DNA of 42,629 bases, from positions 1 to 42,629 of the forward strand of contig JBGSMD010000010.1 in NCBI GenBank assembly GCA_041740355.1, written 5' to 3'. Of this stretch, positions 1-36,666 are shown piece by piece. This DNA comes from Bdellovibrionota bacterium (GTDB lineage Bacteria; Bdellovibrionota_C; UBA2361; CALJRW01). Every line of letters begins with the position of its first letter. Positions within the stretch are counted from its first letter, which is position 1. The translations under genes and the position numbers were made by a program. The notes beneath the pieces were generated by a model. It saw only the letters and a program-made list of their open reading frames with translations, was not told where the DNA came from and ran no database searches.

Positions 1-138
1 TTAGTAAATTAAAAAGAGTCATTACGGCTAATGCAAATCTTGGATTTATCCAAGTTTGCATAGCTAAAAACAACATAAATAGTGAGTCCAAGCAAAATCG
101 TTAGTTTTTAAAGTAATTAATTTTTTGGACTCACTATA
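1..138. mobile_element. MITE-like dispersed repeat, copy 1 (left end truncated by the window edge), 'empty' hairpin allele
   Basis: Aligns with 9766-9903 and 11358-11524. Contains hairpin TGCAAATCTTGGAT-TT-ATCCAAGTTTGCA (32-60) and a perfect 13-bp inverted repeat ATAGTGAGTCCAA (79-91) / TTGGACTCACTAT (125-137). The reverse complement of 113-138 matches the IS end at 42359-42384 at 23/26 positions. Confidence 0.75.
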
Positions 139-5372: not shown

Positions 5373-5535
5373 CCTCGGCGTAGCACGCAGTGCGAAGACG
5401 GGTTGTTTGCATTGTCCAAATCTCAGAACGCGCCATCGCCTCTCGGAGCAAGTCTTGAGGTACGAAGTATTTCAATGAAATATTATCCGGCGTAGCACGC
5501 AGTGCGAAGACGGGTTGTTAGCATTTTCCAAATCT
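5349..5535. repeat. Two ~75-nt direct repeats (5349-5423, 5461-5535), each holding a REP-like hairpin
   Basis: Shared core CGGCGTAGCACGCAGTGCGAAGACGGGTTGTT with conserved flanks TACGAAGTATT and TCCAAATCT. Confidence 0.9.
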
Positions 5536-7485: not shown

Positions 7486-8109
7486 ATGAGTCTTGTAAAG
7501 CATAAACTAAAATCTTCTGCACTAAAAACAGAGGCAAAAAAGGAGAAAGAAAGCTTAGAAAGAAGAAAACTTGGAAATCAGCCAGCAATTAAACATTTTG
7601 GAGAAAGCTTAGAAGCGCTAAAAGTGAAGTATGAGCAATATTTTTTAGGAATTGAAAAATTTACCCCGAGTGATGAACATACCAAATTTAAGCGTATGAT
7701 TCGACAGATGAAGCAACTGCTGCAAAAATCAGCGGAAGATAATTTTAGAATCAGTACCATCGAACAATCTTATCTAACTCTAAACAATCTTTGGGAAAAA
7801 AGCCTTCGTCAAAAAGAACAGGGAACTTACAAACGCGATCTTTTCCGAGCTAGGATGTCAGCAGAGTCAACACTAGCCAAGAGTCCAAAACTAAAGTCGG
7901 ATCATTTAGAATCTTCGCAGGTCGATAAAATTATTGATGATTTTAAATCAAAGTCAAATCTTGATCTCTGTCCGAATAATCAGGCGAAGATAAAGAGCAT
8001 TCTTCTATCGAAAATTAAAGAGCTAAAAAAGAAGGATCAGCAATCTGCTTTTACTATCGAAATAGCGATTCAAGATGGGAAATTAGGACTGCGCACTAAA
8101 TACAACTAA
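7486..8109 (+). CDS. Hypothetical protein, MXAN_5187 C-terminal-domain-like
   Basis: LKVKYEQYFLGIEKFTP, W..LRQKEQGTYKRD and C-terminal IAIQDGKLGL resemble that myxobacterial/deltaproteobacterial family. Recognised from memory. Confidence 0.6.
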   Translation: MSLVKHKLKSSALKTEAKKEKESLERRKLGNQPAIKHFGESLEALKVKYEQYFLGIEKFTPSDEHTKFKRMIRQMKQLLQKSAEDNFRISTIEQSYLTLNNLWEKSLRQKEQGTYKRDLFRARMSAESTLAKSPKLKSDHLESSQVDKIIDDFKSKSNLDLCPNNQAKIKSILLSKIKELKKKDQQSAFTIEIAIQDGKLGLRTKYN

Positions 8110-8694: not shown

Positions 8695-9311
8695 TTAGAC
8701 TTTTAAGATTAAAACAATAAACTTTTCAGCACTTAAAATTTGAATTCTAAATTGATATTTACCAGGTTTTTCAACTTTAAAGTTCAGTGGTTTTACGTTG
8801 GGACCATTATTAATGGGAGTTATTTCTTCAAGTGAAATAATGTTGTAATCGTTACTGGCACCAAATGTATATAGTGGATCCTGACTCTCACTGACAAATC
8901 TAAAATTAAAAGTCTCAGCCTTTTTTAGATCAATAACTACTTCACTTAAAGTCTCAGTCCTTTTAATCATCTTGTTTTTTCCCGGCTTTCTCCACAATTT
9001 GTTATTAGATCCAAAAATTTCCAAAACTAATGGAACTTTCAGATTTTTTAATGGAGTATTGATAATTGTTTGAGCAGATGGATCATGATTAACAAAAAAA
9101 GTATCATAAAAAAGGCCAAGAAAAAGTATGGTTAAAAGAAACAAAGAAACAAAGAAACAACTTTGACAAGATCAAAATAATTTAATGTTTTTTTACTTTC
9201 TTCAATATATTTCTTGAGATTCTCTGCGTCCCTACGTTCTAGGATGTCAGAAATCGCTTCTGTTAAATCTCCAGTTCCACGTCTTTTAAAAGGTTTTGGC
9301 GCTAATGACAT
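8695..9311 (-). pseudogene. Single-pass membrane protein gene frameshifted at an 8-nt tandem repeat (fragments 9311-9132 and 9144-8695)
   Basis: The ATG at 9311 opens MSLAPKPFKRRG...DLVKVVSLFLCFF*. Removing one GTTTCTTT unit (plus strand AAAGAAAC x3, 9135-9158) fuses it in frame to the 8695-9144 ORF, giving 202 aa. Confidence 0.7.
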
Positions 9312-9425
9312 AAGAATATAGTATAAATAAAATTATCACTTTAAGATATAAATTAAAATCCGGAATAGTTAACGAAAGGCTTTGAAAATGCATTTCTGGT
9401 AATCTGACGCCTTCTTGCCTTCCGA

Positions 9426-9454
9426 CTTATCCGCCAAAGCTTTAGCGAAGGAGG
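9426..9454 (-). repeat. REP-like ~30-nt hairpin repeat
   Basis: Reverse complement is CCTCCTTCGCTAAAGCTTTGGCGGATAAG, matching the copies at 9781-9810 and 11602-11627. Confidence 0.8.
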
Positions 9455-9765
9455 AGTTAACACGAAGTTCACCTAATATATAATATAGCAAATCCAAGAA
9501 TGAATTTCCACAAAACTTTTTCGGAAAGGATGTTGGGTTCTCTATATTATTTCTAAACTAAACCAAAATAGCTGCTAATTAAAGAGAGTTTAAAAACTAA
9601 TTTTTGATAAGGAAATTAAATAACATTTATAATCGCGCCCCTTCTGCAAGTGTGAGGGAATGGAATTAAGGTTTAAATCCCTAAAAACTAGACAGAGAAA
9701 TTAAATAGGAATGTCATAGCCGTTTATCTGTAAGTACTCTTGGGATTTCTAAATTATATTGCCAT

Positions 9766-9903
9766 TGCAAATCTTGGATTCCCACCTTCGCTAAAGCTAC
9801 GGCGGGCAAGTATCCAAGTTTGCATAGCTAAAAACAACATAAATAGTGAGTCTAAGCAAAATCCTTGATTTTTTAAAGTAATATATTTTTTGGACTCACT
9901 ATA
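9766..9903. mobile_element. MITE-like dispersed repeat, copy 2, carrying a 30-nt REP-like insert (9781-9810)
   Basis: Near-identical to 32-138 except for CCCACCTTCGCTAAAGCTACGGCGGGCAAG inserted between GGATT and TATCC. Confidence 0.8.
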
Positions 9904-9907
9904 ATTA

Positions 9908-11047
9908 TTAAAGCGGTGCAGTTGTTTGTTCAGAGTTTTCAAATAGATAGCTCCATATACCAATGGTAAAAAATATTAATGGATAAATCGCACAACTTAC
10001 TTGGCTCATCAAATAATAGTGATTCAAAGTTAGGCAAAGTAATAAAGAAAGGATTAAAATGATTTGATGATGGGTAGATTTTAAAAAATAACAGATGGTA
10101 GGAAGTAGTAAAATTGAATCATAAGAAAATGAATAAGGGGTCGATAAAAGACTTAGAGGAATAATTATTAAAGTTATGAGTCGGAGATCCACTAAAAACT
10201 TAAGTAATGCTATCAAAATGATACCAGACACTATTAAGGGAAAAATAAATCTAGCGGCAAAATGATCAGGAAATATTAAGGCCATCAAATTGGGTTGTTT
10301 CCAATAAAATAAATATTCAAACTTTTCTTTTGAAAAGTAAGTATGAAAATTTGCTAGATCGTCACCCAAAACTATAATTGTAAAAACAATACAAATTGTA
10401 CTCAAGACTGCAAAAGTAATTTTATTTGCTCTAAAAATACTAGATAAAAACACGAGATATACTAAGTATAATGCTTGGGGCTTAATTAAGCTTAGTGATA
10501 AGAAGATACCAGCAGCGGGAATACGCCATTTGCCAAGCTTCTTTGATATTTCATTAGAATCAAAAAATAATAAAAACAAGCTTAAGCTTAATAATTGGAT
10601 TGAGGTTATTTGCCCAGAGCGAAATAAGTCTCTAAAGGGTGCAAAGATATATAATATTGTAAAAATAATAGGCAAAGTTAAAAATTTAATTTTTACAAAA
10701 TTGTACAGTTGAGCAAGTGTAGCAAAACAAGAGCTTAAGATTACGACAGTTACAATTTTGTAAGTAAAATTTAAAGCTTCTAAATCTAAACGAGCAAAAT
10801 ATTTAAAAATATAATGTGCCCAAATCGGATAGGTATTAAGAATCAATTTGCCAGATTCAAGAGCAGATTCACTAATCTTATAATTTTTACAATATTTAAA
10901 ATTATCTTCCAAATTACAAGCAGCTAACCAAAATAATTTCAAGTCTTGATCTGTTACTTTTTGACTAAAGCTTACAAGTATTGCTAAAGCTGAAAAGCTA
11001 ATTAGCCCAACTAGCAAGAAAAAATAAAAGATTTGAGACTTTTTCAT
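9908..11047 (-). CDS. Polytopic membrane glycosyltransferase, GT87/DUF2029-like (GT-C)
   Basis: Many hydrophobic segments with family-typical motifs NTYPIW, SGQI, LIKPQ and TPYSFSYD. Confidence 0.7.
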   Translation of the reverse strand: MKKSQIFYFFLLVGLISFSALAILVSFSQKVTDQDLKLFWLAACNLEDNFKYCKNYKISESALESGKLILNTYPIWAHYIFKYFARLDLEALNFTYKIVTVVILSSCFATLAQLYNFVKIKFLTLPIIFTILYIFAPFRDLFRSGQITSIQLLSLSLFLLFFDSNEISKKLGKWRIPAAGIFLSLSLIKPQALYLVYLVFLSSIFRANKITFAVLSTICIVFTIIVLGDDLANFHTYFSKEKFEYLFYWKQPNLMALIFPDHFAARFIFPLIVSGIILIALLKFLVDLRLITLIIIPLSLLSTPYSFSYDSILLLPTICYFLKSTHHQIILILSLLLCLTLNHYYLMSQVSCAIYPLIFFTIGIWSYLFENSEQTTAPL

Positions 11048-11338: not shown

Positions 11339-11524
11339 TGATTCCAAAAAAATTACCTTAGTAAATTGAACAGAGTCATTTCGGCTAATGCAAATCTCGG
11401 ATTCCTGTCTCACCAAAGCAAATGCTACGGCTGATATCCAAGTTTGCATAGCTAAAAACAACATAATTAGTGACTACAAGCAAAACCCGTAGTCTTTTAA
11501 CGTAATTTTTTTGGACTCACTATA
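11339..11524. mobile_element. MITE-like dispersed repeat, copy 3 (longest), with a divergent 31-nt insert (11404-11434)
   Basis: 11358-11524 aligns with 1-138. Bounded by a perfect 14-bp inverted repeat TCCAAAAAAATTAC (11343-11356) / GTAATTTTTTTGGA (11502-11515). Ends in CACTATA. Confidence 0.75.
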
Positions 11525-11601
11525 ACTTTGGAAGTAATCTACTGATTATAAATTATTGTTGATTACTGAGAAAACAAATAATCTAAAAACTAATAGGCAA
11601 A

Positions 11602-11627
11602 CCTTCGATAAAGCTTCGGCGGACAAG
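11602..11627 (+). repeat. REP-like hairpin repeat
   Basis: CCTTCGATAAAGCTTCGGCGGACAAG. Confidence 0.8.
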
Positions 11628-11799: not shown

Positions 11800-13473
11800 T
11801 TGATGAGTAATACCTTTACATACATATGTTCTTTAGCTCCACAACTTTTTAGTCAGGATAATCAAGTACTAGATAATCTCTGTGAAGTTAATAAGTACTT
11901 AAACTGGAAGTCTTCGACACTTAGCTTCTCTTCCAAAACCGAATTAAGTAGTATAAAGGAGTTTTTGAACAAAAAGGAAGTACCATTTAAAAATATCCCC
12001 GAAGGGATTGCTCTTAATTACAAAGGAACGGATCTAAAGGTTCTAATTTTAAATACTCCTTGCTTGCCAAATGAGAACGATTCTTCAAATATTATTAATT
12101 TAATTATTAAGCACTCCTCAGGTATTAATCATACGGTTTTTATCTCCGAGAAAAATGATTGGATTGTAGCTAATGTTATTAAAAGTTTGGCTCCCCATAA
12201 ACTACTTTTAATTGAAAAGTCTCAACCAGAAAGAGCTAATTGTCCCGAGCCTACCGCCCTCTTGTTAATACCAGAGTATAAAATTGCAACAATCGAATTG
12301 CCGAGTAATGATTTTCACAGTAAGCCTGCAGAATTAAATAATTTAAAATTATTAATTGAAAAACTTTCTAAGAATCGTCATCAAATTCCTAAGCAAAAGC
12401 AAAACTTACCTGGAGAAATTTGGGGAATTACTACGTTCTTTAATCCAGCGAAATATAAAAATAAACAAAAAAACTATCAGATTTTTCGAAAGTCAGTAAA
12501 GAGACAAGGCCTTAATCTCTTAACTATAGAATTAATATTTGATGGAAATAAATTTGAGATAAACAAAGAAGATGCTGAAATTCTAGTTCAAATTAAGGGT
12601 TCTTCCTCTAGTATAATGTGGCAGAAGGAACGATTACTTAACCTAGCCTTAGCGTACTTACCAACAAATTGCGACAAAATTGTTTGGTTAGATTGTGACC
12701 TAATTTTTACTAAGGAAAACTGGGTTACGGAGACAGCAAAAAAATTGGAAAACTATCCATTAATCCAACCTTATGCTTGGTCCGTTAGATTAAAAAAAGA
12801 AGATCATCCCACGCGTCCGAAAGGGAAACTACTCAGAGGTAACCAAGAAAGAGCATCATTTCATAGCATTGCCTATGGAGTAGCAAAATATGGACGCGGC
12901 GTTTTACATCAAAGATACCATGAATTTGGAAACCCGGGATATGCTTGGGCGGGACGTAGAGAATTTATTACAAGAATTGGTTTTTTTGATCGTGCGATTC
13001 TGGGCTCTGCTGATTATTTAATGGCTTTAGGATTCTTCGGAGTAGAACGCTCCGTGGACTCGAAGAATCATTCTAGTTCAATTATAGAAGCTTGGAAACT
13101 TTGGAGAGGACAAATTAAAAAATCGGAAATAGGCAAAGTTGGTTATTGCCCAGGAACTGTTTTACATCTCTGGCATGGAGATATTATTGATCGTAAATAT
13201 GAGGAGCGTAACTCTATCCTCAATTCGGCAAAATTTGAATTTGTAAAAGATTTAGATATTGATAGCTCAGGATTGTGGTGCTGGAAAAATAATAATACAA
13301 AACTAAAAAAAAATATTGAAAACTATTTTAAGTTTCGACGTGAAGATTCTAGCTCTAAATGGATTTTCATAAGCAGATTTAGATCAAAATGTAGTTACTT
13401 TTTATCTAGCAAGAAAGAAAGCTTTTTGTTTCGATTTGTATTCAAGTTTTTCAATAATAATAATTTTAAGTAA
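11800..13473 (+). CDS. Putative GT-A-fold glycosyltransferase-like protein with unknown N-terminal domain
   Basis: C-terminal part has WQKERLLNLA, a DxD motif (WLDCD), PGYAWA, ILGSAD and HLWHG. The start codon is uncertain (TTG 11800 or ATG 11803). Confidence 0.6.
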   Translation: MMSNTFTYICSLAPQLFSQDNQVLDNLCEVNKYLNWKSSTLSFSSKTELSSIKEFLNKKEVPFKNIPEGIALNYKGTDLKVLILNTPCLPNENDSSNIINLIIKHSSGINHTVFISEKNDWIVANVIKSLAPHKLLLIEKSQPERANCPEPTALLLIPEYKIATIELPSNDFHSKPAELNNLKLLIEKLSKNRHQIPKQKQNLPGEIWGITTFFNPAKYKNKQKNYQIFRKSVKRQGLNLLTIELIFDGNKFEINKEDAEILVQIKGSSSSIMWQKERLLNLALAYLPTNCDKIVWLDCDLIFTKENWVTETAKKLENYPLIQPYAWSVRLKKEDHPTRPKGKLLRGNQERASFHSIAYGVAKYGRGVLHQRYHEFGNPGYAWAGRREFITRIGFFDRAILGSADYLMALGFFGVERSVDSKNHSSSIIEAWKLWRGQIKKSEIGKVGYCPGTVLHLWHGDIIDRKYEERNSILNSAKFEFVKDLDIDSSGLWCWKNNNTKLKKNIENYFKFRREDSSSKWIFISRFRSKCSYFLSSKKESFLFRFVFKFFNNNNFK

Positions 13474-36611: not shown

Positions 36612-36666
36612 AAATGCTTCCTCCTAAGCTAAAGCTAGGCGGACGAAAAATGCTTCGGCGGACAAG
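36612..36666 (+). repeat. Compound REP-like repeat
   Basis: CCTCCTAAGCTAAAGCTAGGCGGACGAA followed by AAATGCTTCGGCGGACAAG. AAATGCTTC is duplicated at 36612-36620 and 36648-36656. Confidence 0.7.

Follow-up and report, generated by a model that had tools for sequence, protein, structure and literature searches.

We found that a hairpin-forming unit of about 30 bases occurs in one bacterial genome in exact empty/filled pairs, in several families of host repeats, and we consider it very probable that insertion takes place as one discrete piece, as an earlier note on this DNA had claimed for such an ultra-small unit. The window, i.e. the whole stretch of 42,629 nucleotides analysed (contig C10 of a 3.27 Mb genome with 36% G+C), holds three copies of one of these hosts, a MITE. 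Regarding the mechanism, we propose (rough probability 0.45) that the unit is a non-autonomous hairpin, which would be inserted at unpaired bonds after nicking by a linked clade of GIY-YIG nucleases, the strands being joined by host repair.

The unit and its host MITE in the window

The features of the window are as follows (coordinates, strand, description):

1..138, + strand: host MITE copy 1, empty allele with bond 46^47; the contig start clips its left end
9414..9455, - strand: apparent collapsed self-nest, unit 9426-9455 followed by a 12-base 3' remnant of a second unit
9766..9903, + strand: host MITE copy 2, filled allele, 5'-truncated
9781..9810, + strand: 30-base unit of the widespread subtype, forward orientation, in copy 2
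11358..11524, + strand: host MITE copy 3, filled allele, degenerate left end
11404..11434, - strand: 31-base unit, reverse orientation, of a subtype found only in this host MITE, in copy 3
11598..11627, + strand: degenerate unit with no recognised host around it
36619..36666, + strand: apparent collapsed self-nest, degenerate unit plus an 18-base 3' remnant, in the hairpin loop of another repeat

Re-reading of the sequence bore out the empty state of copy 1 at 46^47, and the 30 extra bases of copy 2 (9781-9810) are exact. The 31-base unit reported in copy 3 (11404-11434) is confirmed to be related; it belongs to another subtype and lies in the opposite orientation, the latter point having gone unremarked. 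In all three copies the insertion point is the middle bond of a 4-base loop, and the claimed lack of target duplication holds in each of them. The statement that the same 30-mer also occurs free elsewhere has to be corrected: the unit at 9426-9455 (- strand) has 5 differences and seems, with the 12 bases of another unit that adjoin it, to be what is left of a nest. A search of the window against Rfam matched nothing, and the window ORFs near the finding that match neither Pfam nor NCBIfam lie at 7486-8109, 8695-9144, 9908-11047 and 11800-13473.

The host repeat is about 165 bases long, has imperfect terminal repeats of about 26 bases and TA flanks, and carries no gene. On the right it shares its end with an IS630 element of contig C8 (G000:C8) whose own left end lies outside the assembly, and by these sequence features the host is an ordinary IS630-type MITE. 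It resembles the RUP and Correia/NEMIS MITEs, which we take to be IS630-derived, in its size, ends and TA flanks, whereas the 30-base unit itself has neither such terminal repeats nor TA flanks. The left terminal repeat of the host stands at the beginning of 135 places genome-wide, mostly other MITE families.

Empty and filled alleles in one genome

Among the 59 host copies of the genome that have both hairpin arms, 25 are exactly empty (17 of them at contig ends and possibly counted twice, which leaves about 17 empty loci), 3 more are empty apart from a one-base change, 30 are filled and 1 is internally deleted; empty and filled alleles therefore do coexist in one genome, as proposed. The filled alleles comprise 10 in forward orientation (26, 30 in four copies, 42, 48 in two copies, 49 and 60 bases) and 20 in reverse orientation (30, 31 in eighteen copies, and 33 bases). 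A second hairpin of the same MITE is empty in 26 copies and filled in 22, every filled copy having exactly 32 additional bases, which belong to a third subtype of the unit.

Three empty alleles (G000:C9-59697, C15+35900 and C42-12177) have an inverted loop with one extra base, which reads as template switching between the arms, and the 26-base allele (G000:C30-174854), the tail of which is missing, looks like a chimera that arose between the forward and reverse subtypes through their common 3' half. A simple inversion of loop plus unit was rejected as the source of the reverse allele, the loop bases keeping their order.

Gains, possible loss and probable passive spread at the MITE bond

The tree of host flanks was computed from 41 rows from which both units had been removed. 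The 59 copies yielded 43 distinct sequences after omission of the deleted copy and of those without a right end, and after merging of identical ones; three truncated or degenerate rows, including copy 2 of the window, were then dropped and one identical row was restored. Resolution of this tree is low, 2 of its 37 branches being starred. A single clade was rejected both for the empties (p-AU 0.007) and for the forward alleles (p-AU 0.016), on a short alignment in which conversion is likely, and a single clade of reverse alleles was not rejected (p-AU 0.2). Such a tree had been suggested as a means of telling gain from loss; conversion among copies could be another cause of the non-monophyly of empties and forward alleles.

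The median divergence is 6.9% for the reverse-filled, 5.0% for the forward and 3.8% for the empty copies, and in a sister species 5 of 6 full host copies are reverse-filled (best loci of 22 matches). As the reverse allele is the most diverged and also fills the copies of the sister species, we regard it as an old insertion spread by the MITE. Copies C38+96319 and C13-42070, respectively empty and filled at both sites, have identical flanks (three bases being masked on each side of the bond), a sequence identity that suggests exact loss or conversion. So we count two or more gains at this bond, followed by passive spread, and the host MITE itself probably gave rise to many of the filled copies. 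Repeated gains are also borne out by host J, filled in 1 of 14 copies, by the presence of both orientations at one bond and by self-nesting. Thus, of the idea that the unit enters or cleanly leaves the hairpin loop, the entry is upheld by these repeated gains, and clean excision from the loop is suggested as possible.

No allele polymorphism was found at 9780^9811 or 11403^11435 in the assembled contigs of three runs of one study (one of which is possibly the source of the assembly), in which the empty junctions are present as separate contigs, and no movement of the unit was seen in these contig data. The host copies retrieved from the sister species (the best loci) have no syntenic counterparts here and the intergenic DNA is too diverged, and the available ends of the parent IS630 element, considered as an outgroup, exclude the hairpin.

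Other hosts, self-nesting and target bonds

Tabulated genome-wide, the junctions are mostly base-exact, the exceptions being 3 of the 28 empties, which are off by one base, and the ragged host G (7 empties and 5 filled copies with +29 to +32 bases); apart from these, none of the refuting conditions named in the earlier note was found to hold. Host C (37 rows) has 23 empty copies, 8 filled with +30 bases, one with +41 and one doubly nested with +60; host E has 8 empty copies, 2 filled with +30, one with +29 and one with +42; and host B holds the unit in both orientations. Host H, with 6 empty copies in 9 rows and 2 filled by exactly +30 bases (both possibly one locus), is itself a non-identical relative, entered at the same loop bond. 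In host J, 13 of 14 copies are empty, and this comparison of sequences makes a gain the best reading of the single filled one. The patterns for hosts D and I yielded noise or no match at all; a paralogous site was sought for 108 units, and none was found for 39 of them.

The unit also inserts into itself. The 60-base allele of the host MITE is a unit within a unit, and complete self-nests occur at only two of the 17 bonds scanned, namely bond 12 (loop) and bond 18 (internal bubble), both of which come after GCT. The numbers at bonds 12 and 18 are, respectively, 7 and 2 among 54 units of this genome, 3 and 0 among 21 units at sister loci in two relatives, and 4 and 7 among the 122 units listed across phyla. 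The 42-, 48- and 49-base alleles would be collapsed nests.

In this genome GCT precedes the unit at 21 of 81 distinct junctions versus 4 of 431 controls (CT, 31/81 versus 26/431), and across phyla at 27 of the 120 matches listed versus 6 of 466 controls. Insertions fall in apical loops at 40 of 81 junctions versus 75 of 431 controls, with the reservation that junctions within a family depend on one another and that coding DNA is among the controls; across phyla no apex enrichment was observed (26 of the 120 matches listed versus 82/466). Hence the location at a hairpin apex, which the earlier note had emphasised, stands for the MITE loop and for this genome, and does not extend to a general rule across phyla. 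Nor is the unit tied to this MITE, as it is also present in other repeats, in the internal bubble of its own fold and, in other bacteria, in coding DNA.

Fold of the unit and distribution across bacteria

The unit at 9781-9810 folds into a 6-bp outer stem, an internal bubble, a 2-bp inner stem and a 4-base loop, with a 4-base tail. A flexible pattern found 109 unit-like matches in the genome, versus 1 and 0 in two block shuffles; 108 of them lie outside long ORFs and the remaining one is a chance match within an ORF. The outer stem is conserved, the bubble positions 9/18 are never paired, and the pair 4/23 is of the Watson-Crick type in 31 of 77 units versus 16 expected (a value attained in 0 of 2000 shuffles), kin among these units not being independent. 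Two subtypes of the unit are restricted to the host MITE and are probably its passengers.

An exact degenerate pattern found the unit at no fewer than 120 loci, i.e. at least 120, in many phyla, close relatives possibly being among them, as well as at 3 viral loci. At the class level, it occurs in 31 of 96 genomes, with zero control matches. Among the matches listed, 22 loci below 50% G+C have the unit within open frames of at least 200 codons, and in one in-frame case, compared with a solved homolog, it is an exact 10-residue insert. The unit is in frame in long genes at L014, L019, L025, L033, L056, L080, L085, L089, L090 and other loci, and the in-gene units in sense orientation are nearly always placed at a codon boundary, though a second frame is open. 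In alphaproteobacteria (L028, L063, L082, L098, L116 and L123) the unit occupies one fixed bond, after GCT, of a host that looks like CGTC-type repeats.

A clade of small GIY-YIG nucleases linked to the hairpin

Among the small GIY-YIG genes of the class, a unit-like hairpin lies beside one clade and a different hairpin beside the other; in a tree built without SsnA, the unit-like hairpin accompanies 7 of 15 genes on one side of a branch of support 99 versus 0 of 10 on the other side. This linked clade, the weak structural hits of which are SLX1/UPF0213 proteins (E 0.01-0.5), is present in the sister species, and neither a gene nor a remnant of it was found in the present assembly, the own small GIY-YIG gene of which belongs to the other clade, with the other hairpin. 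The role of the nuclease is thus inferred. In metagenomes, 80 loci encode relatives of the 79-residue GIY-YIG protein of the sister species, and, where the flank is long enough (60 distinct loci), the unit core is located upstream of the gene in 32 loci (15 of 29 clusters; 0.12 in shuffles), and downstream in 0 of 78. A looser hairpin motif, designed post hoc from the flanks, occurs in 50 of 57 loci versus 8 of 175 background windows. As just 4 of 60 cassette flanks contain the full unit pattern, the cassette hairpin is a relative of the unit, not identical to it. Some cassette hairpins hold units in their own loops, and they may be frequent targets of the unit or have a common origin with it.

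A tRNA or tmRNA adjoins the gene of about 80 residues in 31 of 36 chosen loci, mostly preceding it (3' end). Upstream of the gene at L241, L249 and L259-L310, a tRNA 3' end and a three-hairpin element make up a cassette together with the small GIY-YIG gene; the first hairpin often has the tRNA CCA as its stem base, and the gene may point in either direction. In the present genome, the locus G000:C15:68477-69000 (L006) has, in this order, a tRNA-Ala, a small GIY-YIG gene that belongs to the other clade and has a hairpin motif of its own, and a recombinase-like ORF; by this sequence, hairpin type tracks nuclease clade. Downstream of tRNA-Leu and tRNA-Ser (G000:C39:71704-71760 and C63:68398-68460) there is a cassette-like hairpin with no nuclease gene, possibly a relic. 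No cassette is present at the site syntenic to that of the sister species, and a half-kept cassette at G000:C15:75 kb was rejected, only the flanks being shared. Genome G011, with 17 units, gave only a GIY-YIG hit of UvrC length and no small one, and a small GIY-YIG gene lies within 500 bases of the unit at 1 of the 120 loci listed (motif filter). The nuclease of the sister species is not covered at 80% likeness in the contigs of the read runs, which is uninformative as to its presence.

Proposed mechanism and alternatives

By analogy with the Ssn enzymes, we propose that a nuclease acting in trans on the gene-less 30-base hairpin binds its own hairpin in single-stranded DNA and would then nick an unpaired bond of the folded target strand, into which host synthesis or ligation would copy the unit. 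GIY-YIG enzymes hydrolyse DNA and do not join strands, and because of this the nuclease leaves the joining step unexplained. The enzyme would have been supplied in the past or from an unassembled gene, the unit likely gained further copies by travelling with the host MITE as its passenger, and gene conversion or occasional exact loss may later have shuffled the empty and filled alleles. A bolder version, which we put forward with more doubt, is that tRNA-dwelling GIY-YIG nucleases of about 80 residues act in trans to mobilise copies, 30 bases long, of their own hairpin, with neither transposase nor target duplication, and that one near-invariant unit thereby invaded repeats, itself and core genes across phyla and can leave cleanly.

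It is rather unlikely, in our opinion, that no dedicated enzyme was involved and that host processes (template switching at stalled forks, hairpin-break repair or reverse transcription of hairpin RNA) inserted the unit, with slippage generating the self-nests. Such an origin would agree with the lack of a candidate enzyme in this assembly, the many hosts and phyla, the 42-, 48- and 49-base alleles, which slippage between direct repeats within a nest could yield, and the three loop-flipped empties and the 26-base chimera, which point to template switching or conversion at the site. However, it hardly accounts for the same two breakpoint bonds across phyla in the absence of microhomology, for the entry into host H at the same loop bond, which tandem duplication cannot achieve, or for the exact ends of the unit in coding DNA and other unrelated targets, and it leaves the clade-specific GIY-YIG link unexplained. 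An enzyme of another type, an HUH enzyme of the Y1 family (RAYT or IS200/IS605 TnpA) cutting and rejoining hairpins with the unit as its REP-like substrate, had been invoked in the earlier note. The unit does share with IS200/IS605 elements the lack of target duplication, its hairpin is imperfect with a bubble, CT is enriched before it (31/81 versus 26/431), the genome has five Y1 genes (321-341 aa) and, according to the accessible part of PMC3479197, Y1 chemistry is able to join strands; we nevertheless judge this enzyme improbable, since no unit was found within about 1.5 kb of any of the five genes (one of which is cut by a contig end), i.e. the proposed Y1 gene flanked by 30-mers was seen at 0 of 5 loci. 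Moreover, a loose match to the unit occurs at only 2 of 36 Y1 loci, all six hits fall short of the RAYT cut-off (NF047646), 90 of the 96 genomes of the class have Y1 genes versus 31 for the unit, and GTAG is present 5' of the hairpin foot in only 4 of 109 units. The cut position is also wrong, since the unit lands after the T of CT, whereas E. coli TnpA-REP is described to cut between C and T (PMC3479197, in the text available), and the 5' flank (GCT in 21/81) is too variable for the fixed 4-5-base target of IS200/IS605. Long Y1 subclasses are not flanked by REP-like hairpins according to the portion of PMC6006769 at hand, the five genes here being unclassified. Three 341-aa Y1 genes (L001-L003) have common conserved flanks of more than 100 bases, as a mobile element in its own right would.

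Finally, filled could be the ancestral architecture at the MITE site and the empties deletions, so that the unit would not be, or would never have been, independently mobile here. This architecture would suit the reverse-filled state of 5 of 6 sister-species copies (best of 22 matches), the high divergence of the reverse alleles (6.9% versus 5.0% forward and 3.8% empty) and their single origin, not rejected (p-AU 0.2), the identical flanks of an empty and a doubly filled copy, and the two host-confined subtypes. We find it improbable as well: it explains the reverse allele, and possibly part of the empties, but neither the forward allele nor the other hosts; host J, with 1 filled copy of 14, refutes it as a full account. 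It also conflicts with the rejection of one clade for empties and for forward alleles (p-AU 0.007 and 0.016; short alignment, conversion likely), and would demand an exact slip without the support of microhomology.

Relation to known systems and significance

The small dispersed repeats (SDR) of the cyanobacterium Nostoc, reportedly described by Elhai et al. in 2008, are modules of 21-27 bases, for which we know of no enzyme. The accessible part of PMC4390886 describes the insertion of SDR5 between bases 3 and 4 of the palindromic HIP1, and the 30-base unit is alike in being a tiny module that enters palindromic targets precisely, at a fixed bond. Compared by the partial descriptions at hand and not by sequence, it differs from the SDRs in its 30-31 bases, its near-invariance across many phyla and its candidate nuclease. 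Of the Ssn nucleases with their NTS/SRM hairpins, SsnA cleaves single-stranded DNA upstream of its own hairpin, at a distance of a few bases (Chenal et al. 2025, PMC11893778, in the text available). As described there, the likeness would reside in a single-domain GIY-YIG gene with a cognate hairpin both flanking it and dispersed in the genome; however, the SRM pattern matches 0 of 109 units, the clade linked here dwells at tRNA ends with weak SLX1/UPF0213 hits, and the same part of that source presents Ssn as known for cleavage, not insertion.

The GTAG/CGTC REPs are likewise imperfect palindromes of 20-40 bases, as far as the available portions of PMC3733652, PMC8266576, PMC3479197, PMC3116915 and PMC6006769 describe them. 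In the accessible text of Di Nocera 2013 (PMC3733652), some REP families are inserted in other palindromes, some are in frame in genes, and the CGTC class is reported without any transposase. In contrast to REP/RAYT systems, the unit has no GTAG foot and no linked Y1 gene, inserts after CT, and self-nests as single units; by these partial descriptions it appears distinct from the GTAG/CGTC families, although it may be identical with one of the families listed. Judged from its sequence and from these portions of text, the unit works like cyanobacterial SDRs and palindrome-inserted REPs, and does not fit REP/RAYT or SRM elements in the features compared. The literature searched, subscription papers and figures being outside its scope, holds no description of the 30-base unit.

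The spread of palindromic repeats of 20-40 bases is an old open question, and the present genome offers many empty/filled pairs, base-exact junctions, a defined unit that enters itself at two fixed bonds, and a candidate enzyme encoded by a sister species, which makes it testable in vitro. If true, the trans-acting GIY-YIG reading would represent a new route of DNA mobility. The recurring 10-residue inserts in conserved proteins of many bacteria bear on annotation and on protein evolution.

A longer-looped relative of the unit lies 3' of gyrB, on the - strand, in two copies (5377-5402 and 5489-5514) placed 112 bases apart, and both copies of this pair are embedded in a 75-base repeat.
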